Source of the DNA: Gnetum montanum
Lineage: Eukaryota; Plantae; Gnetophyta
Assembly (NCBI GenBank): GCA_015680685.1
Contig: MNCI01002112.1
Coordinates: 432,932-496,931 of the forward strand
Direction: 5' to 3'
DNA length: 64,000 nucleotides
The notes under the pieces: model-generated
The model's input: the letters and a program-made list of their open reading frames with translations, nothing else
Told to the model about the DNA's origin: nothing
The model's database searches: none
Shown: piece after piece, positions 5,996-58,339 of the stretch
Layout of the letters: every line of letters starts with the position of its first letter
Numbering within the stretch: the first letter of the stretch is position 1
Program-made: the position numbers and the translations under genes

Positions 5996-5999
5996 CCAT

Positions 6000-6785: not shown

Positions 6786-6789
6786 TTTT

Positions 6790-8040: not shown

Positions 8041-8100
8041 TTTCCTCTCCAGCCACCTATCATGCCCGAGTTCCCTCTCCAGCCACCTATCATGCCCGAG
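8041..8100 (+). repeat. 30-bp tandem duplication in the 3' terminal repeat of EVE1
   Basis: TT(T/C)CCTCTCCAGCCACCTATCATGCCCGAG twice. Single copy in the 5' repeat. Confidence 0.9.
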
Positions 8101-16500: not shown

Positions 16501-17077
16501 TTAATCCTTATTTAGTATAATTTAACATCATGTAGCCTTGATTCCACCTTGTGATGCCATAATCTACCTCCCTTTTCCTTAATCCACCATGTTATGACCT
16601 CACTTAAGCCTTTTTTTTTTGTCTTGTTCCACTTCATGTTAGCCCTATTCGACTATGTTATGCTTCATTATTGCAATATTTTGCATTACTTTAACTTTTT
16701 TTTAATAATTATGCAATACATATGGTAGTTAAAGAGCTTTTATTGACATGTAGGACTGAATCATGAATACATGGGCACAACTTGAACTACCTTTGAGCGT
16801 GAATGGATCATATGGTGATGTCAAACAAAAAATTGACCTAGAATGCCTAGATCTCAAGCCTGGGAGCCTATTTGATCATATAGCCTCAATAGAAAAGTCC
16901 ATAGAATGGCCTGGATACATAGTCAAAACTCTTGATTTAGAGCCTGAAGACATTATAGAAGACTCTCTAGTTGGAATTCCCATTACAATCCATTATGATG
17001 AGGAAAAAATGCTAAAATTAAGTTCCTCACTAGAACCCAAGATCGTTGGTGTAAGAACACCTCTTCCAATTCCCTTG

Positions 17078-27500: not shown

Positions 27501-30500
27501 TTCTTGAGAGCCTCTAGAGTGGACCAATGTTGAGAGGAGGAACATCTTAATAGATGTAGATCTTGGAGAAGTAGACTGTTGGCGACCGTTTGGGACGCGA
27601 TCGCCAACGAGTGTCCTCGAACAGGATTTAGGTGCCTGCTGGTCTCTGGCAACACCAAGGCCCAGATACCTCCAAATAACTCAGTAGTTAATGTGAGTAT
27701 GTGCGTGTGCTGTTGTGGCGTGTGGTTGTGTGCAATGTAACGATTGCGTGTGTGTGAAATACAACTGACTTACTTTAAAGAGTTTCAGCCAACTTTATCA
27801 AGTACTGTGAGTCGTTGAGAGTTTCCTATTTTGTTCAAACTACCTAGTCTATGCGGTCCCTATAATACCTGCTTGTAACAATTAAAATTTTGCATAAACA
27901 TTTGAGCACAACTCCGCAAATCTACTCCTAATTTTCCCCAGAGAGAGATATATAGTTCCACAAGAAAACTAGAAATAGAGCAAGATTCAAAGGAAATAGA
28001 CAGAAAGAAAAGAAAGCAGATTTGTGTGGACCTCAAATATTTAAACAAGGTAAAATGACACGAGTAAACACTTCGCAATAAAGCTATTCCAAATTCAATA
28101 TCTATGAATTGTTCAAACTTCCAAGACTCAAACAAGCAATATCTTCAAGACAATCCTACTGTACTACCAAAAATTGCTGCGTAAACTACCATGTACGAGA
28201 CTCCATTTTGGCTAGACAGTAGATGTCAACGATTGCATTTAAACAGAACCTTTAAAAGACTTGACAATTTCTGATTGAAATAACACGGAAAATCACTCTA
28301 AAGATAAAAAGAAGCTATTCTGGTCCCATCAAAATACCAAAGATTTTCTGAACCCTCTCGACTACCAAATTGTTCCACGGCGTGACTACAAACAGAGGCT
28401 CTCTTCCAACAATCCAATAGCAGTTCCCAAACGTTGCACAATAACGAAATTTACTACTAAAATGCTCTCAAGGCTTTTTGAACACAAGCGCTTCTATGGC
28501 AAAATTTTAACAGAAATTCCTATTGGGCAACAAGAACAATAAGAGCAATCTAAAAATCCCAAAATTACTTGCCAAGAATGATACTACCTAAACCACTAGC
28601 TAAGCAATTAAAACAAAACAAAAATGAAATGCATAACTCACAGGACCATGACAAAGAGGCTGAAATCTTTATTCTAGCAAATCATCTTGCAAATCATCTT
28701 CTTTACAAATCTTCAAAGTGTGATAATGATGCTTTCTTCCTTCTTGATGTGATGTCTTTTTTCCTTCTTGATGTGATGTCTTCCCCCTTGATGTGATGTC
28801 TTCCCCCCTTTCCTTCCTTCCCTTGAAGCCTATTTATAGGATTCCAAGGTAGGTAGGGAAGTTACAATTTCAAAAATATCTCTCCTAACTTTTCTCTCAA
28901 GTAACTTGACTAACCAATTAGAGAATTCCTTGCCCAACAAGTTAGGAGGTTACTTGCCCAACAAGTTAGGTAAGTTACAACAATTTTAGGTGGTTTTAAC
29001 CACAAAAGAGATAAAAAAGGTTGTAATTGACAAGTGGCCTTGGTATAATATAAAATTAAAATACAATATATGTCCCTTTATTTTGCTTATTCAAATGAAA
29101 GGTCAACTTTAAAATATCAAAAATATCTCAAATATCTTTCCCAACTTCTTTCTTAAATAATTAGACTAACCAATTAGAAGATAAGTTAGGAGAAGGTTAA
29201 GTAGTTAGGGAGTTAGGAAATTATGCATAAAATGAGGAGCATTTTATGCTAATTTTAATATAATGAGAACTTCATAGGGTAATTAAAGTTGCAAATCTTC
29301 AATGGCATTTCATAACTTGGGATAATTGGAAGCATGTCTCTAAATCAAGGTGCCACATTATAAGTATTTCAATGGTCATAATATGTGTATTATATATGTT
29401 TGATTAAACCACCGATACTCCCGTGAAGCTATAGATTAATATTTATTTTATATGTGCTTTGGTGCAAAGTTTGTGGTTAAAACATTGGTGTTGTATGTAA
29501 AAATCGCGCGTCACCGTGGAGGTTTTATCGGTTTCAGGCAACGGTCTTTCTCCTTCTTTTTTGGCGAGAAACTGCACCGATTCAAACTGTCCCNNNNNNN
29601 NNNNNNNNNNNNNNNNNNNNNNNNNNNNNNNNNNNNNNNNNNNNNNNNNNNNNNNNNNNNNNNNNNNNNNNNNNNNNNNNNNNNNNNNNNNNNNNNNNNN
29701 NNNNNNNNNNNNNNNNNNNNNNNNNNNNNNNNNNNNNNNNNNNNNNNNNNNNNNNNNNNNNNNNNNNNNNNNNNNNNNNNNNNNNNNNNNNNNNNNNNNN
29801 NNNNNNNNNNNNNNNNNNNNNNNNNNNNNNNNNNNNNNNNNNNNNNNNNNNNNNNNNNNNNNNNNNNNNNNNNNNNNNNNNNNNNNNNNNNNNNNNNNNN
29901 NNNNNNNNNNNNNNNNNNNNNNNNNNNNNNNNNNNNNNNNNNNNNNNNNNNNNNNNNNNNNNNNNNNNNNNNNNNNNNNNNNNNNNNNNNNNNNNNNNNN
30001 NNNNNNNNNNNNNNNNNNNNNNNNNNNNNNNNNNNNNNNNNNNNNNNNNNNNNNNNNNNNNNNNNNNNNNNNNNNNNNNNNNNNNNNNNNNNNNNNNNNN
30101 NNNNNNNNNNNNNNNNNNNNNNNNNNNNNNNNNNNNNNNNNNNNNNNNNNNNNNNNNNNNNNNNNNNNNNNNNNNNNNNNNNNNNNNAGAGTGGACCAAT
30201 GTTGAGAGGAGGAAAATCTTAATAGATGTAGATCTTGGAGAAGTAGACTAGACCAACATGAGTGAAGAGTAAGTTCTTCATAGGTTGGATATTGGTATCC
30301 TTAGCTTTCTCCTAAAAGACCTTGCTACAGACTCTCTAAAGGTTTGTTTTAGAGGTTTTAATTTAACATTTTTTAAACTTGAAATTTTTTTGTTTTTTTT
30401 TATTTTTTGTGGTTATGTTTTGGCTATAATGACTATTAATTAAATTTTTTATTTTATGTTTTTGTTGCATGCAGGCTTCAAGTGATGGCAACGATCCTAA

Positions 30501-34400: not shown

Positions 34401-34900
34401 TTGTTCCATAGATAACATAGGAGATGAAAAATTAGGGATATTTGTTTGGAGAGCTAATTATTGAAAGAGGCTCTGGATGAAGGTGTCTAATTTTTATTCA
34501 ACCTTAAATTCATCTTTTTTCTCTCGAGGCCCATTGGAACTAATCTTCTTACTCCACTCATTGACATTTATAAGTTGTATTAACATGTGTGCATAGAAGT
34601 TAGTGAGGAAAATTTTATCATAGGATGATGGGATGTATTCTTTTCCATCTTGATGAATAATTTTGAACTGATGCTTATTGTCAAATTCAAAATGTTCTAT
34701 GAGAAGGCTAGATTGTATTTTAACATAGAGGAAATTATAAAACTTCTCAATGATCATGGAGAAGTCTTGGTTCTTGGCCCTCTACCTAAGAAATTGTTTA
34801 TTGTCTATGGTCATTAAGTATTTTGGATCATAGACATAGACTCTATCTTGGTTGGGAACCATGTAGGCAAGGTTGAGTGGCAATATGATTGACCTATGAA
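31450..34900 (-). pseudogene. Ogre/Tat-like gag-protease remnant (no RT or integrase seen)
   Basis: KYNDKGDPNTYLNTF...IFPISLTRKAMDWYHTLPRGSI (gag, ~33660-33830). RVHVDDKVDINVLP (protease, ~31845-31885). Confidence 0.7.
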
Positions 34901-35092
34901 AAGATATTAATTGAGGATTTAGCTAGGTTATGAATTACAAGTTTCAACAGATGAGACTACTCAGTGTATAAAAGACTTAACCTATGGAATATGGTAAAAT
35001 AGGCAACTTCAAGAGTAATGCTAGTGGTAGAAGCAACATTGTTCACTACATTGGTAAATATTAAATAATTAATTTTCTTTTAAAAATTTTTA
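34766..35092 (+). repeat. Left copy of 327-bp host duplication flanking EVE2
   Basis: Colinear with 39692-40018; 13 mismatches counted, no indels. Confidence 0.95.
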
Positions 35093-35685
35093 GGATGTGA
35101 CTCCGCGAGCCACGACTAGAGCATGCAGTGCTTGTCTCAGGTTTATGTGGAACCTAGCAGGACTGTCAAAACATAGGAACATCTACCTAGGACAATGATC
35201 CAAAAGACTCGATAGGCCATATCACATCCATGATATAGTGACAGGGCTCGACGTCAATAATGTGCTCTTGTCTCGACACTTCTCAAGATGAAGCAATTCT
35301 ATCAGACTCTCCTAGCTGATCTTCTAACCTTTCTTTAGCAAACGCGACTGATTCGGGCAGCGACTGATTACGGTACACCTAATCAAGAGAGAATTGGCCG
35401 CAACACTAGGGTTTCTCCAGGAAAACACAATGCAAGTGGATTTTAGTAGAATGTAGCAACGATTCACAAGTAAACTATTAATGTGATACCCATAAGAATG
35501 CAACATATGAAAATTGGGTAACCAAGGATTAGGAACACAACTTCTATATCTTCTTGATTCATATTATAGGCTTGTAGACAGACATGCAAACTTGCAGAAC
35601 TTCAGAATTGACTCTTCGACTTCAAATCCTCTCTATTGCTATTGCTCTTTTTTTTTGCTCTCTATTCTTGGTTTTCCATGCCTCT

Positions 35686-35805
35686 TATTTATAGAAATTG
35701 AGGTTGGGTTTGGTGTACAAGCCATGCCAATGACTCACACACTTATCTAGATGTTACTCACACTTATCTAGATAGACACTATGACTCAGATGCTGTGACT
35801 TAGCA
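35686..35805 (-). promoter_or_regulatory. Probable EVE2 pregenomic-RNA promoter
   Basis: CTATAAATA at 35686-35694 (-) just after the polyprotein. Upstream are TGACTCA-like motifs (35731, 35782, 35796) and CACTTATCTAGAT twice. Confidence 0.65.
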
Positions 35806-36410
35806 TCCTTATCTTCAAATGTCTTTGAGGATAGCCTTGTGGACAGGACAAATTTCCCACGTGTTTTTGTACAATCAAGACAATATTTTATCAGCTTTGC
35901 AAGTTCAGACAACACATTGGATGGCGTTGACAATGATGCTTCCTCTGGCAGCGGTAACAACTTTGGAACTAATTGCTCATTCTCGTACCAATTTTTTTCT
36001 TCAAAGAAATTAATCCGTTGGAACGAACTACATAATTTAGATTCCCATTGTGTTGCACCGATGACATGGTTGAGATAAGTTCTAGCATTATCATTTGGGA
36101 ATAATGGCCTTCGGATGAGCAACAAGTTGTCTAGCACTTCTAGTTGAGACAAATCTGTTAAGATCCTTCGCTCGAGGCAGCTCCACCATAGATTGTTGAT
36201 GATACAATCTATCCTGCCTGCCATGTTGATGAATAGATCAAGCATAGGATATTGCTTGCTGATACTCATTGCAAAATCTTGAGGGAAGAACTTGATGATG
36301 AGGTGACACCATTGGACTCTGTCTTCTAGGCTATTCAACGGTCATGATAGCCAATCATCTATATCCTGTAATGGATTCTGAGAGCTACTACTTCCTTCAG
36401 GCTACAACAT
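35754..36410 (-). pseudogene. Orphan C-terminal domain of the EVE2 polyprotein
   Basis: In frame with the RNase H end NFLPNSLTKEL through three C-to-T-type stops. FINMAGRIDCI is shared with EVE1. Confidence 0.8.
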
Positions 36411-36429
36411 TTCTATCTAAGCTTGTGGC

Positions 36430-38345
36430 ATGAGTTCTTTAGTTAGAGAATTAGGTAAGAAATTAACTATTCTTGGTATCCTTTCCATTGAAAATTGGTA
36501 TTGGGTTAATAAGAACTTCCACTAGGCAAATCTCTATAGCTTTGGAGAAGGAGTGATCTTTCTCCTTAACAGGGCTGCAAGATTAGCTAAATCAGTATGC
36601 AAAATAAAATTACCTTAAATTAAGTAGATATGGAAATTCTCCAATCCTCTGATTGCTGCAAGTATTTCCTTCTCAGTTGGCCAATAGATTAATTCATGCT
36701 TATGAAATGAACCAGAAGCATATGCACAAATTTATTCATCATTTCTTGCACCTTTCCTTAGTAACACTGCTACCCAAGCATCATAGCTTGCATCTGTATT
36801 TAACACAAACCAACCTTTGATGATCGGATTAAGGGGTGGTAGGTTCTGACATTCATTCTTCAGTTGAATAACCTGTTCTGAAGCTTTCTTTGTCCAGTTG
36901 AACGGGACTTGATTCTTACACCATCTTATCTCTATATTTTTATCAGAAAACTTATTTATATGCTTAAAAACATAATTTACACATCCTAAAAACCTTAAAC
37001 ACTATTCTTTGTTTTCAAGGTGATCAGGAAATTAAGTGATCTTTTGGAGGACATGCGGCTGCATGTATATCTTTCCATCTTTGAGTTGGACTCCGAGAAA
37101 TTCTATTTCTCTTTTCCCAATTTGAAAATTTTGTGGATCTTTGGACAAACCAATCCCATGCTGCTTACACATCTTAGCAAACTACTGCAAATGGATGACA
37201 TGTTCTTCTATGGATTATGAGAAAATCAGGAATTCATCAATATAATTAGCAATAAATTTATGGTACCTTCTAAAGACTTTATCCATTCTATGCTGAAACT
37301 ACGATGGCACATTTTTGAGGCCGAATGGCATGCCTATCCATTCATATAGTCCTTGAGGTGTACTGGATGCAGTTTTATGGATGTCTTCTTCTGAGATTTT
37401 GATCTAATGGTACCCACTCTTACAATCAAACTTACTGAAATAAGAATTCACTGCAACCTTCTGGATTAAATTCTCCTTGTTTGGTAATGACCATTTAACA
37501 TCAATGGTTATGACATTCAAAGGAATGTAATTGATAACCATTCTTGCTTTACCTCGTTTTACTGTGGACTATGAAACTTGCACAAAAATAATTAGACTGT
37601 GAAGGTCTAATTAATCCCTTTTTTAGAAATTCTTCAATCTGTTTTTCCATCTCTTCTGTATCCACTGGGTTGAGTATAATTTTCTTGCTTTGAACTGGGA
37701 TATTATGAATTGTTGGAATAAAAGCAACTAGACTATCCTTGTCCTTAAATCTAATGGGTGTTCATTGCAACATGCTTGTAATTCCTGAAAACAGAGAACT
37801 AACTTATGGTCTTTAGTATTTACATCTATATGGGCTTTCTTGAGCTGTTGAAAATGCTGGTACTTTGCTCTTGCAATGTCTTCCATCTCATACTACGAGA
37901 TTATCTTTGAAACTGTAGGATTCTATTTGAACTACTTCAACTAAGGGTGCTTATTTCATTGCATAGCTGCTGGGATCCTTCATATGATAATCTTCGATCT
38001 TGGATCTTGAAGTGGAGATGAATAGACAATCATCTCTAGACCAACTATGTAAGGACCTATGCAATCCATAAAGTGTGCTCCTAAGCCAATGTCAAATCCA
38101 CTATCCAAACCTTGCACAAAATTGGTTGTGCCCACATATTCATCATTAAGCAAGATAGGGATATTAAATGGAAAATGAGACAAAATTCTAACACCATTCA
38201 TAGTTTCCAAAGTAACTGGCTTAGTGTTTTCTTCCCATTTTTCTAGCACATTCTTATGGAAAAAATTTAAAGTAGCACTTGTGTCGATGAAGGCTTGATA
38301 TTTTCTCCATTTCTTGTCACCATCCACTACAATCTTGATTGGAAT
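36430..38345 (-). pseudogene. EVE2 aspartic protease, RT and RNase H
   Basis: ORF 37980..38327 (FIDTSAT). RT motifs GKARMVINY, FSKFDCKSGY, MPFGLKN. RNase H EKEILAAIRGLENFHIYLI. Confidence 0.92.
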
Positions 38346-39691
38346 CAGAAAAATAGTATGTAGTGAGATTAGGTGTTTGATTTTACGTTGAATCTCTGGA
38401 GCATGCTTCTTTCTTTTACTTCTAGTCTTCTTTTCTTCTAAATTAATAGGAAACTTTTTCTGAGATCATCAATTGGTTTCCATTCTGGATAAGCTTCAAA
38501 AAAGGCTTTAATATTTCCACCATCTTTCTTTAAACCATCAGGAAATTCATAGGAATAATGACCTTGTCTTTAGTAGGTGTAGCAGGTGATTGACTTTCTT
38601 CTGACTGGGCCACTTCTTTTCTTGGCAAAGAATCTCTTTCTTCCTAGCTTGAATGTTCTTCGAGCCATCCATCTTTTCCTTAAAAATCTTGGAAAACTTA
38701 TTTTCTTTAAAAATCTTCTTTTTGGATGTTGTGAGGGAGCTCGGGCTGGAGGACCAAAAGAATCAACTCTATTTAAGTTCTTACACACTTCTGCTGACGG
38801 TAACAGCTTCTATAGAGAGACATTGTAGCATGAAAATTGTAGCTTTTGTCTAACCATATGAACTACATCTATGAAAGAAGTTAAAGATAAATCTACATCT
38901 TTTTCTAATGCTTTATACAATACCATTTGTCCTAACTTAGCAGGTAAACTCAAAAAATATAAATAATTAATCATCTTATCTCTGTGTAATGCTAGTCTGT
39001 AAACCTCATTAGCATATTTTGTGCTAAATTGTTCAAAGTAGCACAAATCATGCAATTTCCTTTGGCTTAACAACAACTTATCTTTAAATCTTTACTTGGA
39101 AGACAAATCTACTATAAATTCAGTAACAAGGGCAACAAATACACCATGTAAACCAATTTGAAGGATTTTCTCTTGTTGCTCTTGGGTAGCACTTTCCCAC
39201 CTATGAAGAATATTTCCTGCTGCTCTGATGAAGGTTCCAATGATTGTAGTCCTTTCATCAATGTTGAGGATGTTCATGGCAATTCTCAACTGATCTATCC
39301 ATAACCTTAAAGCATGGAGTACCTCTTTCGGTGGTAAGTAATCAATGTTGATTACAGGAATTGTAGATGCTGGCCATTGTTGAAAAGCTAAGAATGCTGG
39401 AGGAGCATTTACTGTAGGACGTTGCCGTGATCTTGTGGGTTGTTGTCTTCTAGCGATCATAATCCTTTGTTGGTATTCCTATAAGCTTAGTTGTTTTTAG
39501 CTTTTCATCTTCTTCTTCTTATGATGGAGGCACTGTAGGTTGTGTTGTAGGTTGACTTGTGGAGGCTTTCTTTCCTTTCTTTTCTTCCATTAATCTTTTG
39601 ATTCTTTCCAGTAGAAATTTATCTCTAGGATCAATGGTTGATTCAGGAGCTTTAGGAGCTTGAACTAGAATTGGTTCCTTAGTTGGTTGAA

Positions 39692-40018
39692 CTTGGTTCT
39701 TGCCCCTCTACCTAAGAAATTGTTTATTTTCTGTGGCCATTAGGTATTTTGGATCATAAACATAGACTCTATCTTGGTTGGGAACCATGTAGGCAAGGTT
39801 GAGTGGCAATATGATTGACCTATGAAAAGACATTAACTGAGGATTTAGCTAGGTTGTGAATTACAAGTTTCAACATATGAGACTACTCAGTGTATAAAAG
39901 ACTTAGCCTATGGAATATGGTAAAATAGGCAACTGCAAGAGTAATGCTAGTGGCAGAAGCAACATTGTTCACTACATTGGTAAATATTAAATAATTAATT
40001 TTCTTTTAAAAATTTTTA
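39692..40018 (+). repeat. Right copy of 327-bp host duplication flanking EVE2
   Basis: Matches 34766-35092. Confidence 0.95.
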
Positions 40019-40880: not shown

Positions 40881-41049
40881 ATCTATTATTAATTGTTAGC
40901 ACATTTGGCCATTTCATGGAACAGTTGGACTATCTTATCAAAAATTGAAACATCTTGGTGTTGGTACATTTTTCCCATTTAATGGAGTAGGCTTTATGAT
41001 TGAAAGGGAATTTCATTTATCGTTTGTTCTATATTGATTTAAGAGAGAG

Positions 41050-41780
41050 ATGATCTACCCATCCAAACATTTTTACACTAAATTTTTAAAAATAATGTAT
41101 GGTTGGAAATTTAGAAGTAAACATGTAGCTTTAAGGTTATGGGTTGATGGGTGTTTTGGAGAAGTAAGCAGACTACTAAACATAGATGGGATAGAGGAGC
41201 CTACAGTTGCACTTGTTATTTGGGGAATGGGAGGTATCGGTAAGAGCACTTTGGCTATTGCCTCTATTAAGAGCCTGGAGAACAAACTCTCACAAAAATA
41301 CAACTTTGCCAGAATCAAGTTTGACAACATTGTAAAACAAGCAAAGCATTTCCATATTGCTAAGTTGCAAAAACAAATTCTTCATTATTTGTTTATAGGA
41401 AAAACAGAAGAATTTTTGTTTAGTGGAAGGCATGATGTTGAGGATGATTATTACATCCCATGTACAGGAAGTCAAAGATGAAGTTCCAAACTGTTGTGAA
41501 AAAATTTAAAATTTATCAAAGACACCGTCTCCATGACTGATTATTAGAGCATTTACTGGAAAAAAAGTGATGGGCCCTGTCACGAAAGAATTCAGAGAAG
41601 CATTTGCAAATGAGATGAGCATGTTGAGGGAGGTAGCATACTTATACTGTAGGATTCCTTTGCTGCTAACTATGGTTGGAGGACAGCTACGTAAAAATAG
41701 ACACTCCAATACTTATGATGAGTTTATTCAAAAATTAAAAATGGGAAATGTTAATTTCAAAATTGTTGAGTATGATAAAA
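41050..41780 (+). pseudogene. Captured NLR NB-ARC fragments in the 5' LTR U3
   Basis: P-loop IWGMGGIGKSTLA, RNBS-A-like LQKQIL, GLPL-like (C)CGIPLLL.MVGGQL. Kinase-2 segment absent. Confidence 0.88.
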
Positions 41781-42398
41781 TGCAACAAAATAGAGGCATC
41801 TTCATCGATAAATTCATGTTTCCTTTCCTGGCCAAGGCCTGCACCATGCTCTAAGACTTGCACCAGGGCCAGAATGTGTATCGTCATGCCAGAAGAGCTC
41901 GATTTGATTCCAACTTGGTCATCATGAACTCATTCATTTTCATGTTTAGCAAATGCTGCTACCTAGACCTTGCGAGAAAGGTGTTTAAGAAAATTCCTAA
42001 CAAAATCCTAGTTTCATGGAACTCTATGGTTGCGGCTTATGTCGAAAATGGATACTTGGATAAGGCCTTCGAAATTCTGGAAGTCACATGGGACATTAGG
42101 GTCTACCCTGATAAGGTCATTATTTTGAGTTTGCTCAGTGGATGCACTAAATTTGGGGATAGGAATGTAGAGTTTGTGCATGACTGGGCTATAGAACATG
42201 GTTTGGATTCAGATGTTGCCGTGGGCAACGCATGGGAGAATTGGGGATGATTTCCCAGGGCTAGTCCGTTTGTGCCCTGATTTTGAAAAAGGGCTTTGAT
42301 GTAGATACTATTATTAGAATAGCTTTCATTAATATGTATTCCAAACACAGGGATATGTGCAAAGTTAGGAAATTACTTCCAGAGAATATTTTGCAATG
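41780..42398 (+). pseudogene. Captured PLS-class PPR fragments in the 5' LTR U3
   Basis: DKF.FPFLAKAC, ARKVF..IP.K.LVSWNSMVAAYVENG, PD.V.ILSLLSGC, GLDSDVAVGNA, A.INMYSK. Confidence 0.9.
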
Positions 42399-44359
42399 AT
42401 GAACCTGTAAACAACCTTACCAAAAATAGCAGCAGTGCCAGATGCCAATGCATTCGTCTTCGCCATTACCAATCCATCCAGTGTGGTCACAGAGACATGA
42501 AGACATAGCAAGATAGGTGTAAAACTGAATCAACAGAACTAGGAGACATTTTAGCTGATGTCAATAAATCAGGGTTATAGTTTATTCAGAAGAAACCATC
42601 ATCGCTGAAGAAAAATAAAAAACCTGAATGCACAGAATTAAAGTCACAAAATAAAATTACAATTTCATATGGTTCAGTGGCTAAATATAATTTTAGCAAA
42701 TTTCCTTACAAGAAACAATTGTATGAAGTGCTTATTAAAGACCTAGCATTAATTTAATTATCTCAAATGAATTACTAAGGCTTTATACAAGGTGGGTGAT
42801 TAAAATCCTAAATAAAATATGACAATTGTATGAAGCTCGTAGGAGATCTTGGATTTATTTTTAGGTTATTGATTATAAAAGAAATATTTGCACATGCCAA
42901 TGTTAGCATGATTTTCTCCTAATTTTATGTATAAGTTACAACTTCCTAACTTGTTGGGCAAGTAATATCTCCTAACTTGTTGGGTAAGTTATAACTTCCT
43001 TTCTTGGGAGAGAAGCTACCTAAGATATTTTTAATTTCTAACTACCTTTTGAACCCTATAAAAAGGCTTCATGGGTTTGAAAAAGAGAGGGAACTATACT
43101 TGCTCTCATTGAGAGATCACACACTTTGGGGTCTCACACTTGGGGTCTTGGAGGAAGATTGTAAAGAAGACATTGTGAAAGATTGCTTGTAAGATGACTT
43201 GTTAAAGACAACATTTCAGCCTCTTTGTCATAGTCCTGTGAGTTATGCTTATTATTTTTTATTTTGTTTAAATTCTTTAGCTAGTGGTTTAGATAGTATC
43301 ATGCTTCGCAAGTAATTTTTGGATTTTTAGATTTCTCTTATTGTTCTTGTTGCACGATAGAAAATTTCTAATAAAGTTTTGCCATAGAAGAGCTTGTGTT
43401 TGAAATCCTTAAGAGCATTTTAGTAGTGAATTTTATTATTGTGCAATGTATAAGAACCGCTATTGAGATTGTTGTAAGATAGCCTCTGCATATAGTCAAG
43501 TCGTTGAACGATTCAATAGTCAAGAGGGTTCAGAAAATATTTGGTATTTTGATAGGACTAGAAAAGCTTCTTTTATCTTTAAAGTGAATCTCTATGGTAG
43601 TTCAATCAGAAATTATCAAGTATTTTGAAGGTTCTATTGAATGCAATCATTGACATCCATTATCTAGCCAAAATAGAGTCTGGTACATGATAGTTTACGT
43701 AGCAATTTTTTGGGTAGCATAGTAGGATTGTCTTGAAGAAATTGCTTATTTGAGCCTTGGAAGTTTGAACAATTCGTAGTTATTGAATTTGGGACAAATT
43801 TATTGCGAAGTGTTTACTCATATCATTTTACCTTGTTTAAATATTTGAGATCTTTACACAAATCTGCTTTCTTTTTCTCTTCTTTCTAATTCCATTGAAT
43901 CTTGCTCTATTTCTAGTTTTCTTGTGGATCTATCTCTTTCTTTGGGGAAAATTAGAAGTAGATTCACAGAGTTGTGCTCAAATGTTTTTGCAAAACTTTA
44001 TTTGTTAAAAGTAGGTATTATAAGGACTGCATAGACTAGGCAATTGAANGTTTAACACACAACCCAATTATTTCATTTTTCACAATAGCACACCAAAATA
44101 GCACACACACATACTCACATTCACTACTGAGTCTATTTCGAGGTATCTAGGCCTTGGTGTTGCCAAAAGACCAGTAAGCACCTAAATCCTATTCGAGGGC
44201 ACTCGTTGACGGTCGCATCCCAAACGGTCGACAACAATTGTTTTGGCACTAGAAGAAGGGCTGAAAATTTTGCCTCTAAGTTCATAAGCCTTATAATTTT
44301 AGCACATCAACAATTCTTTGTTACTAAAAAGGCTTAAGAAATTAAATACTATTTTCAGT

Positions 44360-45930
44360 TCATGACCAAGAATATTGATAGTTTGGAAAATTTAAAAGTT
44401 TCAAAAGATATTCTTGATTATAAGACCGATTCTTCATCAGAAGAAGAAAAAAAAAAGTTTTGAATTAGGAACAAGTTGTGGAGCGAACTAGAAGATCGAG
44501 AAGATCACCCATTATATCTATTTTATCGATTTATAAGAGAAGATCTAGAAAGTCTAAGAGTTCAATTATCCAAAGGAATAGGATGGCAAATCCTTGGCAA
44601 AGAGTTACACCATTAGGATTTTAAAATTACAATGATATTCCTAAGGTAGTTTACAAATATTTTCCTGAACCTTTCATTCTTAGAAAATCTTATTTAGCTA
44701 AAGAATATATTCACATGTTTGAGTTAGCTTTAGCTCATGCAAATATTCGACATCAAGATCAAGCTTGTAGGTTGTTTGTATCAAATTTAAAGGATATGGC
44801 TTAGATTTGGTATTCGAACTTACCAAGTAATAGTATTACAAGTTGGGATGACATGAAAAATATTTTCTTGGCCCATTTTGGTAATCAATTAGATCAACAA
44901 CAACTATACTATGGGCTAATACAAGCTAAACAAGGAGTTAAAGAGTCAATTAGAGATTTTAACATCAAGTTTCAACGAATTTGTATACTCTTTCAAAGAC
45001 AATATAGGCCATCAGAAGAAATACTTAAAGAAACTTATCTTAAAGCTGTCAAGCCCAACATTTCAATTTGGTTAAGGAGAACTCCAAACTTAACTATACT
45101 AAATGACTACTTTAGTGAAGCTATACAGTTAGAAAAATAGTTGAACTTGAATCTTGAAGAAAATATTGCAATTCAAAAAAGAGAAGAAAGAGTTATGATT
45201 CCTATGCAAGATTTTTCTCAATTTAAATATTTATCAGGTCCATCTCATGTTAAGATAGAGCAAGAACATGAAAGAGTAGAATCTGGAAAAGGACAATTAA
45301 TGAGAGATATGTCTAACAAAATAGTGAAGCTTGAAAAAGACTTGGTAAGAGTTAATATCAAGGAAGAAAGGAAAAATAGAAAGCATAAACATCAAGACAC
45401 TAAGTTAGCAGAAGATGAGGATGAAATTGACCTTATTATGTCCAACTTTCTTGATATTGAATCTGATAATGAGTAATCTAGTGTTCATTATGCAAGTAAA
45501 TCTTCTAGCAATGGATCTAGTGATATTTCTTCTCTATCAAGTTCTGAAGAAGATATGTCTTCAGATGAAGAATGTAATAATAATGAGGAAAATGGATATT
45601 TTCTTTGATCTAAAGAAAGATTAACTACTTCTAGACTCCCAAATTTTATTACTGATCCATCTACTAAGAGAAAATCTTTTGGGCTAAATAGAAGAGATAA
45701 GAATAAAGGTAAAGATAATAAAGTTGAGCAAAGTACTCCAAATCAGTCTTTTAATAAATGTATAAGGAAACCAAGCTTTATTGGCGATGGAGATTATGAT
45801 TTGATTGAAGACCTTAAACATGTCAAGGCCAATATTATCTTTTAGCAGTTGCTTCAAATAGGAGATCAGCAAAGAAAGGCTTTAGAGTTTATTAAAGGTA
45901 AAAGGAGAATTAGAGAATCAGAGTTAAGTT
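44360..45930 (+). pseudogene. Tat gag
   Basis: CRLFVSNLKD.A..WYSNLPSNSITSWDDMKNIFL...QGVKESIRDFNIKF. Confidence 0.85.
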
Positions 45931-46435
45931 NNNNNNNNNNNNNNNNNNNNNNNNNNNNNNNNNNNNNNNNNNNNNNNNNNNNNNNNNNNNNNNNNNNNNN
46001 NNNNNNNNNNNNNNNNNNNNNNNNNNNNNNNNNNNNNNNNNNNNNNNNNNNNNNNNNNNNNNNNNNNNNNNNNNNNNNNNNNNNNNNNNNNNNNNNNNNN
46101 NNNNNNNNNNNNNNNNNNNNNNNNNNNNNNNNNNNNNNNNNNNNNNNNNNNNNNNNNNNNNNNNNNNNNNNNNNNNNNNNNNNNNNNNNNNNNNNNNNNN
46201 NNNNNNNNNNNNNNNNNNNNNNNNNNNNNNNNNNNNNNNNNNNNNNNNNNNNNNNNNNNNNNNNNNNNNNNNNNNNNNNNNNNNNNNNNNNNNNNNNNNN
46301 NNNNNNNNNGATAATATTACTTCAAATGGAAATAGTAAAATGGTTGAAAAAGAAGGTGTTGAAAACAAAATTTGTACACTCCAAGAAAATTATAATTCTG
46401 AAAAAGAACAATCAAAGAATGAGGATAAATGAGAG

Positions 46436-46810
46436 TTATACTTTGAAGGTTCATGTAATTCAAAAGGTGCAGGAGTTGGTATAGTTATATTAAAGAATGA
46501 CTCACCTAAAATTCTTAAAGAAATTCATCTATCTTTCCCTTGTACGAACAACAAGGCTGAGTATGAAGCTTTATGTATTGGTGTAAGAATAGCTCTAGAT
46601 AAAAAGATCAGAGTAATCACTATAAAAGGAGACTCAAGATTAGTTTGTGAACAAGTAAATGGTAAATGTGTAGTAAAGAGCTCATTCTTAAGACCTTATA
46701 AGCAACTTGCTTGTAAGATGTTAGATCAGTTTCAACATTGTTGAATAGAGCATATAAAAAGAGCAGAGAATCTTATAGCAGATGATCTAGCAAAAGCAGC
46801 TTCAGCATTG
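46436..46810 (+). pseudogene. Additional archaeal-type RNase H (aRH) upstream of RT
   Basis: Frame absent from the ORF track: LYFEGSCNSKGAGVGIV...CTNNKAEYEAL...GDSRLVCEQVNG...R.ENLIADDLAK. Confidence 0.9.
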
Positions 46811-47199
46811 GATATGCAAATAATAAAAATTTACAAAGATGTAATGGTTGAAGAAGAACATCAGCCATCAGTACCAAATAATATAAGACATTTACAAGTA
46901 TTTGAAGATGATGATCAAGTACTAAGATTTATGAAAAAAAAACAAGAATTTGAGGGTCAAGTGATACCTAAAACATCATCAAACTCCAAAGATAATTTTA
47001 TTCCAAAAAGGATGATTGACTTGGAACATGAGTTCAAGGAAAATTTACTTACTAGAAAGGATATACAAAACCTAGATAATCAAGCTTTCGAGGTATTGAA
47101 TTTTGGATTAGACAGAATGCCAAAGGTGTTGAATGTTACAAAGGGAAGAGATTCGAGTTTCTAGAAAAACTTGTTAACATGTCTAAGAAATAATTTGGA

Positions 47200-49310
47200 C
47201 AATTTTTCTTGGTCTTATGATGATCTTAAAGATTTTAGACCAAATGTGATGACGCATAAAATTCCTTTAATAGAATGTTGTAAAAGAGTCAAGCAAAAAT
47301 AAAGGAAATTTAATCCATCATTTGAACCAGCTATAGAAGCCGAAATCAAGAAGTTGTTACAAGCATGAATCATATATCCAGTATGATATTCAACATGGCT
47401 TTCTAACCTTGTTCCAGTGAGAAAGAAAAATGGTGATATAAGGCTTTGTGTAGACTTTAGAAATCTGAATGATGCCTCAAAAAAGGATAAGTATCCACTT
47501 CCAAGAATTGATGAGATGCTAATTAAAGTCTCAGGTTGTCAAGCATGTTCTTTCTTAGATGGTTTCTCAGGTTATAATCAAATCGTGGTAGATAAGAATG
47601 ATAGATATAAAACAACATTTATCACCAAATGGGAAACTTTCGCTTACCAAAGAATGCCATTTGGATTGTCAAACGCTAGAGCTACTTTCCAAGGAGCAAT
47701 GGATCTAGCATTTAAGGATTTATTAGGAAAATTCATGGTGGTTTATTTGGATGATATTACAATATTCTCAAAGAAAAAAGATCATATTAATCATCTCCAT
47801 CAAGTTTTCGACAGATGTTGTGAGTTTGGTATTTCATTAAATTCTAAGAAGTGTATCTTCGGGGTTAAATCTGGAAGCTTATTAGGCCATGTGATATGTC
47901 AAGAAGGAATTGCCATAGATAATTCCAAAATCCAAGTAGTATAGAATATTAAACATCCCACAAGTAAGAAATCTATAAGATCTTTCTTTAGGAAGATAAA
48001 CTTTGTGAAAAAGTTCATCTCCGGGTTTACTAAAATTACCAAGCCTTTGATGCATATGCTAAAAAAGATGTCCAAGTAGAGAAAACACCAGAATAAGAGG
48101 GAGCTTTATCATAAATTAAAATTGCTATACAAGAGGCTCCATATTTGGTGAAGCCTAGGCTTAAATAAGATTTTTGGTTATATTCTTTTACTTTGAATGA
48201 TTCTATCGTTGTTGTTTTAACAAAAAAAGATGTTGAAGGTCAAGATGAACCAATTGGATTTTTTGGGTATCATTTGAAAGGTTTAGAATTAAATTATTCA
48301 GACTTAGAGAAACAAGCATTTGCAGTCATTAAAGCACATCAGCATTGTAAATATTATTTGGAAAGTTCATTAGTCCACATTATGCTAATTGAACCTGTAG
48401 TCAAGCGATTCGTAGCCCAAAATGAGATTGGGTTAAAAAAAAAAGAAAATGGCTTATAAAGTTGCAAAGTTTTAGATTTTCATTGAAAATATGAAAAAAA
48501 ATCAAGGGAATGGGTTTAGCCAAGTTAATGACTAGAGAAAGTGAAGTATGTACACTTGACACCCATGAAGAGAATTGGTATGATGAAATTCTTAAATTTC
48601 TTAATACAAGGAAAATCCCAAATAATTTAACTACAAGTCAAAATAGATCTTTCTTCAAAAGAGCACAAAGATTCATTGTTAAAGATGGTATATTATATAG
48701 AAAATATTTTAGAGGGGTTTTATTGGAATGTGTTCATAATGATTAAATTAGTTTCATTTTGGAACAATTTCATGATCATTTAAATTTATTTTATGAATCC
48801 CCTAAGTCAACTACACAACATATACTTTGATATGGACATTACTAGCCTTCCATGTATCAAGAAATTAGTTCAAAGATTCAAAAATGCTATAAATGTCAAA
48901 TTCATGGGCCCAAGATTAAAAAGGCTAGAGCCCCTTTAAAGCCAGTAGTTGCAGATAAACCATTTCAGCAATGGGCTTTGGATTTTATTGGTACAATTAC
49001 TCCTTCAAGAATTGGACACAAGTTTATTCTCACGGCTACTGATTATTTCACTAAATGTTCTGAAGCAAAGGCTCTAAGAGGAAGTTCAACATCAGATGTG
49101 ATTAAGTTTCTAGAAGATCACAATCTACGTAGATTTGGTATACCCGAAGTGTTAGTGTCAGACAATGGACCTACCTTCAAATCGGAAGAATTTATCAAAT
49201 GGGCATCAGAAAAATCTATTTTCTTATTTTCCTCATCAAACTATTATCCTCAAGGAAATGGCCTAGCAGAATCCACCAATAAAAAGCTTATCGCTTATAT
49301 CAAGAAATCN
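47200..49310 (+). pseudogene. Tat RT, RNase H and integrase
   Basis: RLCVDFRNLN, FLDGFSGYNQ, MPFGLSNA, YLDD; NYSDLEKQ; PFQQWALDFIG, SDNGPTF, YYPQGNGLAE. Confidence 0.93.
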
Positions 49311-49929
49311 NNNNNNNNNNNNNNNNNNNNNNNNNNNNNNNNNNNNNNNNNNNNNNNNNNNNNNNNNNNNNNNNNNNNNNNNNNNNNNNNNNNNNNNNNN
49401 NNNNNNNNNNNNNNNNNNNNNNNNNNNNNNNNNNNNNNNNNNNNNNNNNNNNNNNNNNNNNNNNNNNNNNNNNNNNNNNNNNNNNNNNNNNNNNNNNNNN
49501 NNNNNNNNNNNNNNNNNNNNNNNNNNNNNNNNNNNNNNNNNNNNNNNNNNNNNNNNNNNNNNNNNNNNNNNNNNNNNTTAGATAAGTAGATAGTATATTA
49601 TAATAATAAATATATTTAGGATAAGTTTATTTAAATTATAAATTAGTTTTGTAAGGTAATCCCTACAAGTGAAACAAGTGGAAGCCTACAAGTGAGGCAA
49701 GTGAAATCCTACAAGTGTGACAAGCAGAGAAGGTGACTCATCCACCACTTAGTAAGGATTTTGACAAGTGGTTAGAATGCCTAAAAGGAGGAAAAATTGG
49801 TTGAAGACTCTTGGGGGGAATTTTAAATTTCTAGCTACTATAAAAAGAGGATTGGGTTGCCTAGGATTTCTTCATCTTCCAATTCATGTTAAGTAGAGAA
49901 AGTAAGAGAGAGCTAATTTCAAAGAGGAG

Positions 49930-50330
49930 ATGGAGTTTGGGAGAATAATGAGAAAGCCTTTCATTCCTTATGTGATGGGATGTTGCCCAGAACATGTGTT
50001 GAAGGCTTACTTGAAAGCTAGATCATGTGGACCACCGAAAGAGTGTCCTTTCATGGCTTGGTTGGCTGATGAATTCTCATTTCTCACAAGAGGTTTAGAG
50101 ATAGAGTCAAATGTTTGGGGGCAATATCAAGATTGCACCCAAGAATAGGAGAGGGGAGAAGAGCAACCAACCAATGAGGAGTCATGGAAAGAAGCATTCG
50201 TGTCTCAAGAGGAAGATAAAGGACCCAATGGTGAAGACCAGAAGGATTTATCTGAAAAAGAAAATGAGAAGATTGCTGAAGAAAAATTCAAGTAGATCAA
50301 GTTGAGAGCTCCACCAAGCTAGAAAATAAC
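49930..50330 (+). pseudogene. Extra Cys-rich/acidic ORF between integrase and the 3' LTR
   Basis: ORF 49930..50148 continues past one TAG into an acidic tract. TATA at 49838, AATAAA at 50557. Confidence 0.55.
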
Positions 50331-50630
50331 AGAACAGCCTTCATCATGTCAGAAATTTCCTATGATAGAGTTAGAGATATGAGGATTTCTAATAGAGTAA
50401 CCCTCACAGTTCTGTTTCCATCTCAAGAATAGTCCATGAATGAAGGACTTGCTAATGTATAGTTTTTTTTTAGGAATGAGGTTTTTGTACCATCAAACCT
50501 AATGTTTGTTGGGAATTTTCCTTCAAAAATATTTTTCTGTTCAACTGTAAAAATTCAATAAAAGTTTTAGTATGTTTTAGTTTTAAAATGGGGCTGCATA
50601 AATTTCTTTAAGCTTTTAAGGGGGCAAAAA

Positions 50631-53600
50631 TGTTGGCACATTTGGCCATTTCATGGAAAAATTGGACTATTTTATCAAAAATTGGAACATCTTGGTGTTG
50701 GTACATTTTGCCCATTTAATGGAGTAGGATTTATGATTGAAAAGGGATTTCATTTATCGTTTGTTCTATATTGATTTAAGAGAGAGATGATCTACCCATC
50801 CAAACATTTTTACACTGAATTTTTAAAAACAATGTATGGATGGAAATTTAGAAGTAAACATGTAGCTTTAAGGTTATGGGTTGATGGGTGTTTTGGAGAA
50901 GTAAGCATAATGTTAAACATAGATGGGATAGAGGAGCCTACAGTTGCACTTGTTATTTGGGGAATGGGAGGTATCGGTAAGAGCACTTTGGCTATTGCCT
51001 CTATTAAGAGCCTGGAGAACAAACTCTCACAAAAATACAACTTTTCCAAAATCAAGTTTGACAACACTGTAAAACAAGCAAATAATTCCCATATTGCTAA
51101 GTTGCAAAAACAAATTCTTCATTATTTGTTTCTAGGAAAAATAGAGGAATTTTTGTTTAGCGGAAGGCATGATGTTGAGGATGATTATTACATCCTCTGT
51201 ACAGGAAATCGAAGATGAAGTTCCAGACTATTGTGAAAAAATTTAAAATTCATCAAAGATACCATCTCCATGACTGATTATCAAAGCATTTACTGGAAAC
51301 AAAAGTGATGGGCCCTATCATCGAAGAATTCAGAGAAGCATTTGTGGATGAGATGAACATGTTGAGGGAGGTAGCACACTTATGCTGCGGGATTCATTTG
51401 CTGCTAACTATGATTGGAGACCAGCTACGTAAAAACAAACACTCCAATACTTATGATGAGTTTATTCAAAAAGTAAAAATTGGAAATGTTAATTTCAAAA
51501 TTGTTGAGCATGAGAAAATGCGCTAAAATAGAGGTGTCTTCACCGATAAATTCACATTTCCTTTCCTAGCCAAGGCATGCGCCATGCTCTGAGACTTGCA
51601 CCAGGGCCAGAATGTGTATCTTCATGGCAGAAGAGCTTAGCTTGATTCCAACTTGGTTTTTGCGAACTCGTTCATTTTCATGTTCAAAAAATGCTACCGC
51701 CCAAACCTTGTGAGAAAGGTGTTCGAGAAAATGCCTGACAAATCCCTAGTTTCATGGAACTCTATGGTTGCGGCTTACGTTAAAAATGGATACTTGGATA
51801 AGGCTTTCAAAATTTTGGAAGTTATGCAAGATGCCAGGGTTTGCCCTGATAGGGTCACTATTTTGAGTTTGCTCAGTGGATGCAGTGAATTTGGGGATAG
51901 GAAGGTAGGGTTTGTGCATGACTGGGCTGTAGAACACGATTTGGATTCGAATGTTGCCGTGGGCAACGCGTGGGAGAATTGGGGACGACAGTCTGTTCAT
52001 GCCCTGATTTTGAAAAAGGGCTTTGATGTAGATACTATTCTTAGAATAGCTTTGATTAATATGTATTTCAAATGCAAGGATATGTTTGAAGTTATGAAAT
52101 TGCTTCCAGAGAAGATTTTGCAATGATGAACCTGCAAACAACCTTACCAAAAATAGCAGCAGTGCCCGACGCCAATGCATTCGTCTTCACCATTACCAAT
52201 CCATCTAGTGTGGTCACAAAGACATGAAGTCATAGAAAGATAGGTGTACAACTGAATCAGCAGAACCTGGAGATGTTTTAGCCGATGTCGATACCTCAGG
52301 GTTATAGTTTATTCAGAAGAAACCATCATCGCTGAAGAAAAATACAAAACCTGAATGCACAGAATTAAAGTCACAAAATAAAATTACAATTTCATAGGGT
52401 CCAATGGCTAAATATAATTTCAGAAAATTTCCTTACAGGAAAAAATTGTATGAATCACTTATTAAAGACCTAGCATTAATTTAATTATCTCAAATGAATT
52501 ACTAAGGCTTTATACAAGGTAGGTGATTAAAATCCTAAATAAAATATGACAATTGTATGAAGCTCTTAGGAGATCTTGGATTTATTTTTAGGTTATTTCT
52601 TATAAAAGAAATATTTTCACATGCCAATGTTAGCATGATTTTCTCCTATTTTTATGTATAAGTTACAACTTCCTAACTTGTTGGGCAAGTAATATCTCCT
52701 AACTTGTTAGGCAAGTTATAACTTCCTTTCTTGGGAGATAAGTTACCTAAGATATTTTAAATTTCTAACTACCTTTTGAACCCTATAAAAAGGTTTCATG
52801 GGTGAGAAAAAGAGAGGGGACACTACTTGCTCTCATTGAGAGATCACACACTTTGGGGTCTCACACTCGGGGTCTTGGAGGAAGATTGTAAAGAAGACAT
52901 TGTGAAAAATTACTTGTAAGATGACTTGTTAAAGACAACATTTCAGCCTCTTTGTCATAGTCTTGTGAGTTATGCTTATTATTTTTTATTTTGTTTAAAT
53001 TTTTTAGCTAGTGGTTTAGATAGTATCATGCTTGGCAAGTAATTTTGGGATTTTTAGATTGCTCTTATTGTTCTTGTTGCACAATAGAAAATTTCTATTA
53101 AAGAAAATCTTTGGTAGAGCTTGTGTCTGAAAGCCTTAAGAGCATTTTAGTAGTGAATTTTATTATTTTCCAATGTATAAGAACCACTATTGAGATTGTT
53201 GTAAGAGATCCTTTGCATATAATCAAGCCGTTGAACGATTCAATAGTCAAGAGGGTTCAGAAAATCTTTGGTATTTTGATAGGACCAGAATAGCTTCCTT
53301 TATCTTTAAAGTGAATCTTTTTGGTATTTCAATCAAAAATTATCAATTCTTTTGAAGGTTCTGTTGAATGCACTTGTTGACATCCATTATCTAGCCAAAN
53401 NNNNNNNNNNNNNNNNNNNNNNNNNNNNNNNNNNNNNNNNNNNNNNNNNNNNNNNNNNNNNNNNNNNNNNNNNNNNNNNNNNNNNNNNNNNNNNNNNNNN
53501 NNNNNNNNNNNNNNNNNNNNNNNNNNNNNNNNNNNNNNNNNNNNNNNNNNNNNNNNNNNNNNNNNNNNNNNNNNNNNNNNNNNNNNNNNNNNNNNNNNNN

Positions 53601-53803
53601 NNNNNNNNNNNNNNNNNNNNNNNNNNNNNNNNNNNNNNTTCAATTTTCACAATAGCACACTACAACAACACACACAAATACTCATATTAACTACTAAGTC
53701 TATTTGAAGGTATCTGGGCCTTGGTGTTGCCAAAAGACTAGCAAGCACCTAAATCCTATTCGAGGACACTCGTTGGCAATTGCGTCCCAAATGGTCGCCA
53801 ACA
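50631..53803 (+). repeat. 3' LTR
   Basis: Starts TGTTGGCACATTTGGCC after the PPT. Ends GGTCGCCAACA before the TSD. Confidence 0.93.
50787..52126 (+). pseudogene. Second copy of NB-ARC + PPR cargo (3' LTR U3)
   Basis: ORFs 50787, 51305 and 51653 parallel 41050, 41567 and 41858. Confidence 0.9.
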
Positions 53804-54849
53804 TTAATATGAATAAATTAAATTGCCAATTTAGATCTAAATGTAGAAAAATAGAGAATAAATTTGTACTTAAGAAAATGAGACTACTAAATTTTTATTA
53901 CGACAATGAACTTCCTCACATAAATAGAGTCTATATGGTACAAATTTTTGAATTTCAATGCACAGAAAGCAAAAGCAAGAATGCTTTGGATTCAATCGAG
54001 TTGGTAGGATGTGTCCTATAGTTAGCTCTACTCTTGATGGTCCCATATTTTCTACACCTTAAACTTGTCACTAGTTTCTCTATCACTGGATTTTCATTTT
54101 GTGTGGAAGATTGGTTGTGGACTCTTGCTAAAATGCACTACTTTGAAATTCTTGGTGTCCAACTTGAATGCAAATTGTCAGAATTCCTTTCAATATGATC
54201 AAATTTGGTTTAAATAGGCCATATTGTGATTGATTCATTGCTGCAAATCTTTTCCATGATTGCTAATAGATTGCTAAAATTTCTAGTGTATGTAGGGAAT
54301 CTCTTGGCATTTTATTTATCAAATTTGGAAATATTATGCTTTTTTACACTAGCTTCATCTACTTTCCAGCATAAAAATTCAAGGCCTAGAATAAAAATTC
54401 AACACCCAAATTTATACATTGGATTTGTAGGTTTTCTAGCATAAAAATTCAAGGCCTACATAAAGCCAAAAAGCACAAATTTTCTACACTACCCTTGTAG
54501 GTTGCTTCAGTGTAAAAGCTACCATAGCTACCATATAATCCTAGAAGTTCCCAAATTTGGTAGTTTACAAGAAATTTTTAACTTTCCCAATCCTAGATAC
54601 ATGAAAACTATAGTTTTTCCTACCTAGAAGATGAGGCATTCACAACTTATGAAGCATTTTTCTTAGCCTTCATAAGCTAAGATGTGTGAGATTGTAGCTA
54701 CTGAGTTGAAAATTTCATATTTTACAATAAAAATACTACCTCAAATTCTAGTGGCTAAGGTTACAATGCTAGATCTTGCCTAAAATAAGGCAATTGTGTT
54801 TGACATTATTCTTCCCCAAATTACAAATAATTTTGATTATAGGTTTCAA

Positions 54850-57420: not shown

Positions 57421-58339
57421 TGATGAGTGGCGAGGTACCCCTATGCTCAACCATACGAATACAAGTGTTACGTGCAATCCGATCGAACTCCAAGGACTAA
57501 GTGCTTATGCACCTTCATAGAACAAGGATGGGTTAGGCGATCATTGTCTTCCCAAACTTACTCATATGGAATGATTGCATGGTTAAGTAAACTTGAGGTA
57601 TATGATTTTTATGCTTTTTATGCCACATTCATGAATTAGCAAGGGTAGATAAGACATAATGCTATTGATACCTTGCCTCGATATGAAGCACATTGGCTAG
57701 GTTGTGGGTATGGCAGATATTGGGTTAGAGGTTTATCACTGGTGACTACCCAAGGTGTAGGGGTGAGATAAGTAATGGAATGGAAAAAATTTCTGACATG
57801 GCCCCCATGACTAAGAGCAAACCTTTAGTAGCAATAGGGTGAAAAACTTAAAGAATACGAAAGATGAGAGAAATAACAATAGTGAAGCCATGAAAACAAA
57901 AGCAAAAATGGATGTCATTGATGGGGTGAACGAGAAATAGTCGATTGCAAGAAATATTTAAGGGAAAGAGCTTAACAATTGCACCAAAAAAGAATGCCAA
58001 TGAGTTCTTCCCAAAGTAGGCTAATGCCCTTTATGACCTAACATACCCACAAACCAAAGAGTCCATAGCCTCTAGGAATGACATATGGAAACAATGGTTA
58101 AGTACTTACCCACAAGAATTTACCAAAGAATAACAATGCATCAACCAAGATATAGATTAATCATAAAAATGGCAATGAGGTGGAATATGGAAGGTAATAT
58201 GGAAAGAGAGGAGAGAATAGAATGGGATCCCAAAATCATGGTTGTATAAAGTCCCTTGTGTAGTATGTGATTAAGGTGACTTAATAAAATTTGGCCCAAA
58301 TCTAGATTAAAACTAACCACATCCAGTGACCTTGCATCA
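57421..58339 (-). repeat. 3' LTR of an Athila-like gypsy element
   Basis: Minus strand TGATG (58339) ... CATCA (57421). Homologous to 1-272. The inner boundary is less certain. Confidence 0.7.

Follow-up and report, generated by a model that had tools for sequence, protein, structure and literature searches.

We analysed a 64,000-nt stretch of Gnetum montanum contig MNCI01002112.1 (the window, within which all positions are numbered) and found that the element at 40894..53803 is a dead gypsy retrotransposon of 12.9 kb with TatII domain order, both of whose long terminal repeats (LTRs) carry pieces of host genes. These pieces are a gymnosperm-type NB-ARC fragment of an NLR and PLS-type PPR repeats, and they most likely lie in U3, since a sibling LTR in the window has a matching TATA motif in the homologous place. 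The cargo was already damaged when the element inserted, and likely consisted of non-functional passengers rather than a working fusion gene. Gene capture of this sort is known; here its position is unusual and the cargo is dead.

The element and its boundaries

The element has the paired LTRs with TG..CA ends, the target-site duplication (TSD) and the polypurine tract (PPT) of a full-length LTR retrotransposon, as described in the original prediction, an earlier note on this DNA. Both LTRs open with TGTT and close with AACA, and their end-to-end alignment gives a Kimura two-parameter (K2P) distance of 0.094 over 2933 sites. A tandem or segmental duplication mimicking LTRs was rejected, as the homology begins at the TG right after the PPT and stops at the CA before the TSD. 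The apparent duplicated NLR and PPR genes had been placed inside the two LTRs of this one element, and NB-ARC and PPR similarity was indeed found in both. For the primer-binding site (PBS) that had been claimed, a PBS-like site starting with TGG does lie 7 nt past the 5' LTR, and it may resemble a tRNA-Asn PBS. No tRNA gene was found in the window. The parts of the element outside the cargo are as follows.

40889..40893 (+), left TSD, TTAAT (chance of TTAAT on both flanks ~0.0045)
40894..44236 (+), 5' LTR, 3343 nt, TG..CA ends
42915..43063 (+), putative promoter region with short repeats and the TATA box (43057), sharing homology with the sibling LTR
44244..44260 (+), PBS-like site, TGG start, 7 nt past the 5' LTR end
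44805..45137 (+), gag fragment (Retrotrans_gag; Pfam E=2e-9)
46433..46741 (+), aRH, an additional RNase H preceding the reverse transcriptase (RVT_3 E=8e-12, RNase_H E=1e-5)
47387..47941 (+), reverse transcriptase (RT) fragment (E=3e-27), with stops on either side
48169..48456 (+), RT-linked RNase H (E=8e-11)
48846..49292 (+), integrase core (E=7e-11)
50618..50630 (+), PPT, a purine run directly adjoining the 3' LTR
50631..53803 (+), 3' LTR, 3173 nt, containing an N gap at 53400-53638
53804..53808 (+), right TSD, TTAAT

Gag, aRH, RT, RNase H and integrase are all interrupted by stops. RT, RNase H and integrase follow one another in the Ty3/gypsy order, and the aRH sits between gag and RT, with the protease itself presumably in the N gap at 45931-46309; this is the arrangement of the Tat clade, in which the aRH lies between protease and RT. 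In the classification of Neumann et al. (2019, PMC6317226), that position marks TatI of club-mosses and TatII of gymnosperms, and the supplement gives TatII elements a mean length of 12.8 kb (range 8.3-18.1 kb) and a tRNA-Asn PBS in 15% of cases. The present element resembles TatII, as characterized there, in its aRH upstream of RT, its 5-bp TSD and its 12.9 kb length (PMC6317226). It may further share a gymnosperm-type host, to which the NLR matches given below point indirectly, and a putative Asn-like PBS. A TatII placement would fit the domain order, length and TSD. The extra open reading frames (ORFs) of TatII are classed in that paper as 5' or 3' of the polyprotein, whereas the host NLR and PPR pieces here lie in the LTR (PMC6317226). 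Between the integrase and the PPT, ~49780-50300 (+) holds the remnant of an extra sense ORF with an acidic end and no Pfam match; an eORF-3'F of this kind is reported in 26% of TatII elements (PMC6317226).

NB-ARC and PPR fragments in both LTRs

The cargo comprises the following segments.

41050..41481 (+), 143-codon ATG ORF, with NLR homology (P-loop, RNBS-A) only at ~41143-41403
41392..41426 (+), out-of-frame deletion junction; ~45 NB-ARC profile positions including Walker B are gone in both LTRs
41426..41767 (+), NB-ARC remainder from RNBS-B to GLPL and the next helix, with stops common to both LTRs at ~41500-41540
41771..42398 (+), PLS-type PPR fragment continuing the frame of the GLPL piece, with a TAA stop (41852-41854) and, at ~42233, an internal deletion plus frameshift
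50880..51520 (+), NB-ARC fragment of the 3' LTR, carrying the same Walker B deletion
51509..52126 (+), PPR fragment of the 3' LTR, with stops at 51524, 51590 and 51638 and 11 nt lost relative to 42251-42261

The match of the 41050..41481 ORF to the Pfam NB-ARC profile (E=3e-4) is under the curated cut-off. A phmmer search with the same ORF returned 16 matches, the best being a Welwitschia NLR (E=3.6e-12, 46% identity), and eight of the ten named NLRs among the 16 are from gymnosperms. NLR homology extends from ~41143 to ~41767, and PPR homology follows from 41771 in the same frame, so the in-frame joining of GLPL to PPR described earlier holds, and does so in both LTRs. The cargo had been said to start ~150 bp into the LTR; this is correct for the ATG at 41050, but the first ~31 codons have no NLR match and the homology begins about 250 nt in.

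The TATA box lies at 43057 in the 5' LTR and at 52784 in the 3' LTR, and the cargo is upstream of it in both, as predicted. In the standard replication cycle of LTR elements, the genomic RNA has a single U3, at its 3' end, from which both cDNA ends receive their copy; therefore anything in U3 is doubled. Since the cargo is found in both LTRs and upstream of the TATA box, it went through reverse transcription and integration with the element, in agreement with the earlier claim.

Further coding cargo was sought around these pieces and rejected. A third fragment at 42392-42751 has two stops in 120 codons, but is not exceptional against shuffled sequence (P=0.09 in the 5' LTR, 0.63 in the 3' LTR) and has no Pfam match; a frame at the very start of the LTR fared no better (P=0.14-0.30, no Pfam match). 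We note that the stop-poor frame at 42392-42751 / 52122-52481 (+) comes right after the PPR piece, and that its first codons weakly extend the PPR alignment in the 3' LTR.

The cargo was broken before insertion

The lesions of the cargo predate the insertion, because they are common to both LTRs. Against an NB-ARC profile built from 11 related NLRs, profile positions 18-98 match in one frame; in both LTRs the match breaks off at 97-98 and is taken up again at 142-143 in a frame shifted by one. Walker B falls in the lost interval, and frameshift-aware alignments agree on this deletion. From RNBS-B to GLPL there is at least one stop common to both LTRs in whichever frame. In the PPR piece, the motif ending in VAVGNA is followed by an out-of-frame jump (~42233) to a later repeat, at letters common to both LTRs, so that the fusion frame ended near 42278 at the latest, at a stop common to both. 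The PPR piece of the 3' LTR appears in frame at this point; this look is secondary and due to later loss, because the 5' LTR alone has 11 nt (42251-42261) that match PPR homologues.

The NB-ARC match stops short of the winged helix and MHD, and both of these are absent, along with the LRR. A functional NLR has an LRR and, in a single frame, P-loop, Walker B, GLPL and MHD; the cassette lacks this combination, and it also lacks the single open frame from an intact NLR into PPR that an NLR with integrated PPR would have. The earlier description of the cassette was right about the fragments and their in-frame join, but overlooked the Walker B deletion and frameshift and the PPR deletion and frameshift, all common to both LTRs.

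The original prediction also held that the fusion was probably open at insertion, on the grounds that a stop at a common position is TAA in one LTR and TGA in the other. The two codons are as stated (TAA at 41852-41854 in the 5' LTR, TGA at 51590-51592 in the 3' LTR). TGA to TAA is a single CHG-context transition, however, while an origin from CGA needs three changes, and transitions of that kind are very frequent here: 11 CTG sites changed between the LTRs while 12 did not. A likelihood ratio of 13-24 favours a stop already present over two independent decays of CGA. With a prior decay of 10-40%, the posterior for a sense codon at 41852 is 0.11-0.57; the prior for CGA is raised because the PPR piece had undepleted CpG at insertion. 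The codon therefore leans towards closed at insertion. An open fusion is not supported, given this likelihood ratio, the P-loop half in another frame, the deleted Walker B and the stop near 42278, and an open codon at 41852 would still not rescue a functional NLR-PPR.

Neutral divergence and CG/CHG decay since insertion

A test of the ratio of nonsynonymous to synonymous divergence (dN/dS) had been proposed for the cassette. Between the two LTRs, the PPR piece had a raw ratio of 0.47 (p=0.011), compared with 0.67 in the NB ORF and 0.98 in the GLPL piece. Off-frame controls gave 0.53 (p=0.039) and 0.28, and with CG and CHG columns removed, pN/pS (the same ratio for proportions of differences) was 0.99 for PPR, 0.65 (p=0.45) for the N-terminal NB part and 1.37 for GLPL and PPR together. 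Purifying selection on the PPR piece was rejected on the strength of these controls and of the corrected PPR value. Once methylation sites are removed, divergence between the LTRs since insertion is neutral.

CG and CHG sites are heavily decayed between the LTRs, with 14 CpG kept in both and 31 in one only. This decay indicates that the copy was likely methylated after insertion. The PPR piece decayed fastest: its K2P is 0.16, whereas the NB stretch next to it, which is equally old, has 0.05; transversions are similar in the two. Visible CpG sites are also concentrated there (29/617 in PPR vs 7/721 in NB, p=2.5e-5). The CpG observed/expected ratio at insertion comes to ~1.2 for the PPR piece and 0.2-0.6 for NB and the other U3 sequence. 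As the PPR piece was still CpG-rich at insertion, the CpG data suggest stepwise capture in at least two steps, with the PPR piece last.

How the fragments may have entered the LTR

We consider it probable that the cargo, passive and non-functional, was acquired stepwise through template switches to host RNAs. While copying U3, the reverse transcriptase would have switched template onto co-packaged host RNAs, in at least two captures with the PPR piece apparently the later, and additional jumps may have deleted Walker B and PPR motifs. Such cargo could be tolerated if the far-upstream part of U3 is dispensable, with the promoter-proximal part, R and U5 retained. The replication cycle would then double the U3 cargo to both LTRs and, after insertion, the element would be methylated, with the PPR piece decaying fastest.

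Several points weigh against this reading. Protein searches found no donor gene (best identity 49% for NB, 38% for PPR), and a word-based search with the NB ORF against proteins of 78-251 aa gave none among 14 candidates. Junction microhomology and intron loss are judged against a donor, so capture at the RNA level is something we infer. The in-frame NB-PPR join would arise by chance in one case out of three. The CpG contrast could stem from the composition of the donor genes themselves and not from the order of capture. Finally, the raw PPR dN/dS was low (0.47, p=0.011), and the PPR selection test is weak, with 19 differences only, and covers the time since insertion, not the active family.

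The strongest rival, which we regard as unlikely, has the fragments entering the parent's 3' LTR at the DNA level, whether by repair of a break, by ectopic conversion or within a DNA transposon or Helitron whose ends were later lost, followed by retrotransposition; the cargo would again be passive. In its favour, the searches gave no donor and so no RNA hallmark; several deletions could have built up in a resident copy, and RNA- and DNA-mediated capture are both discussed for gymnosperms in PMC13477047. The ends of the cassette speak the other way. No inverted repeats common to both LTRs bound it, and no common CTRR-T end was found between 42300 and 43075; the cassette shows neither the terminal inverted repeats (TIRs) and TSD of its own that a Pack-TIR element would have nor a Helitron CTRR end with hairpin, although decayed ends could escape and it was the Helitron 3' end that was examined. 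The original prediction had named TIRs, a TSD or Helitron ends, combined with occurrence outside this LTR family, as evidence that would overturn it. Moreover, both pieces are coding and lie in the sense orientation of the element, and the undepleted CpG of the PPR piece argues against a long stay in a methylated copy.

It is still less probable that the host already had the NB-PPR junction, in fused or adjacent NLR and PPR genes or in a read-through transcript, and that it was taken up whole and then eroded by deletions. In favour of such an origin, the join is in frame, and it could be one more deletion, given the others inside the cassette. Among the 16 NLR matches none carries PPR, and no NB-ARC was found in 12 PPR matches or in the best 120 of 183; these searches were insensitive, with identities of 23-49% and no close relative. 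The two pieces also differ about five-fold in CpG density at insertion.

We give very little credence to a family that keeps the cassette for its benefit, as a GLPL-PPR protein or a silencing-softening decoy expressed from the U3 of the 3' LTR: the in-frame join, the freshness of the PPR piece at insertion, a first stop that was possibly a sense codon (posterior up to 0.57), the raw PPR dN/dS and the existence of U3-encoded retroviral proteins such as MMTV sag, with nef in a like position, would suit it, but the cassette has no Walker B, MHD or LRR, both LTRs have broken frames, the 5' LTR cargo lies upstream of the presumed start site and in the genomic RNA it follows gag-pol, and the heavy CG/CHG decay points to a methylated copy. 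In addition, PMC13477047 reports no methylation advantage for Platycladus transposable elements (TEs) with captured fragments.

A sibling LTR and the family question

The window holds one cargo-bearing element and one sibling LTR, which served as a control.

27577..29593 (-), sibling LTR; 84-85% identity over R/U5 and ~70% over the promoter repeats, with its 5' end in an N gap

In the sibling, the next ~600 bases upstream of the promoter repeats have no match to the cargo-bearing LTR; the only sibling LTR in the window thus has an unrelated upstream U3. Provided that its size is given correctly, the 5' gap (29594-30187, ~600 N) could not accommodate the cassette. Because the sibling has retained promoter and R/U5 while its upstream U3 differs, the far-upstream U3 appears exchangeable in this lineage, which fits both a family habit and an accident. 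Exact-pattern scans with a U5 motif and an NB motif gave no matches in metagenome contigs and none in viral contigs, collections that are unlikely to include this plant, so the result carries little information.

More broadly, and as a tentative proposal that we would sooner doubt than adopt, a gymnosperm TatII lineage may use the far-upstream U3 as an exchangeable slot. Host coding pieces would be taken up stepwise, NLR first and PPR later here and other CpG-rich DNA in the sibling, doubled at each insertion and left in solo LTRs, where they could seed NLR/PPR pseudogene pairs and small-RNA templates against immune and organelle RNA-editing genes. Were this to hold across the family, it would allow domain shuffling and silencing cross-talk with immune genes in the large genomes of gymnosperms; taken alone, one decayed copy is a curiosity.

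The sibling LTR is probably solo, with TAGAC as a candidate TSD. A 62-nt flank is repeated on both of its sides (27516-27577 and 30188-30249; 98%), likely as an assembly effect. The top 148 nt of the sibling LTR are CpG-rich (observed/expected 1.2), with a 49-codon open frame; coding cargo in this frame (29446-29592) was rejected (P=0.57, no Pfam or Atlas match).

Relation to known captures

Acquired sequence inside LTRs has precedents. MMTV sag and nef lie in U3. Small-RNA pieces are described in Cassandra, Helenus and Ajax (PMC10886601), and Wis-2 sequence within the LTRs of BARE-2 (PMC13317346). As in these cases, the acquired sequence here resides in the LTR and is copied to both ends; the cargo there consists of small-RNA promoters, TE sequence or functional viral genes, whereas here it consists of broken host protein-coding fragments.

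Plant LTR elements commonly capture genes, and NB-ARC and PPR belong to their known cargo; less usual is the position in U3. In pepper, tomato, potato and rice, NLRs are reported inside LTR elements (PMC5664825); in rice and sorghum, the domains captured by LTR elements include PF00931 and PF01535 (PMC3726574). In those reports the cargo appears as annotated genes within elements, while here it lies inside the LTRs. Host gene fragments are likewise the cargo of gymnosperm TEs, with ~400,000 captured fragments per genome and two or more in ~14% of host TEs (PMC13477047), and of maize TEs, where 3% of Sireviruses carry them (10.1101/777037). Both accounts describe the captured fragments as mostly silenced, and what may differ here is again the position within the LTRs. 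Transduced ORFs are said to occur mostly in one or few copies (PMC7264820).

Multi-gene chimeras formed by template switching are documented in animals, where they replace internal ORFs (Tan et al. 2016, PMC5131818), and maize Bs1 carries three host genes (PMC5131818, PMC13317346). The present element is like LTR-mediated retroposition and Bs1 in holding partial coding pieces of more than one host gene. In both of those, as described, the cargo replaces part of the internal ORFs, whereas here the element retains gag-pol, and its cargo, placed in U3, is doubled and would persist in solo LTRs. The Bs1 chimera is also reported to be translated (PMC13317346, PMC5131818), while the one here is broken. 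A literature search, which covered titles and abstract openings and is therefore weak evidence of absence, returned no plant LTR element with host protein-coding fragments in U3.

Such a position has practical consequences. U3 cargo is doubled at every insertion, would outlast the element in solo LTRs, and is open to misannotation as tandem NLR/PPR duplicates. It also distorts LTR dating, as seen in the different K2P of the PPR and NB stretches at the same age. Conversely, the paired LTRs offer a rare internal record of the lesions that preceded insertion and of the CpG state of the cargo at that time.

Other features of the window

Two related stretches of ~5 kb, at 3023-8163 (+) and 34766-39991 (-), each lie between direct repeats (79-96%) and share 42-61% similarity at the protein level. 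In the first, a PBS of putative tRNA-Met type lies at 3177 and RT gave no match; the second has an RT remnant (37143-37559) and a caulimovirus-type A3 protease (E=8e-7). Both are likely endogenous caulimovirid-like sequences. A 404-nt tandem duplication (6925-7328 / 7398-7801, 95%) inside the first stretch ends at an N gap and may be an assembly artefact. Decayed retrotransposon pieces lie at 19397-21315 (+), with RT at 19397-19795, and at 58141-61647 (-), with RT at 59779-60333 (40% to the RT of the cargo-bearing element) and integrase at 58144-58533. A degenerate tandem array with a 10-nt period occupies 16213-16503.

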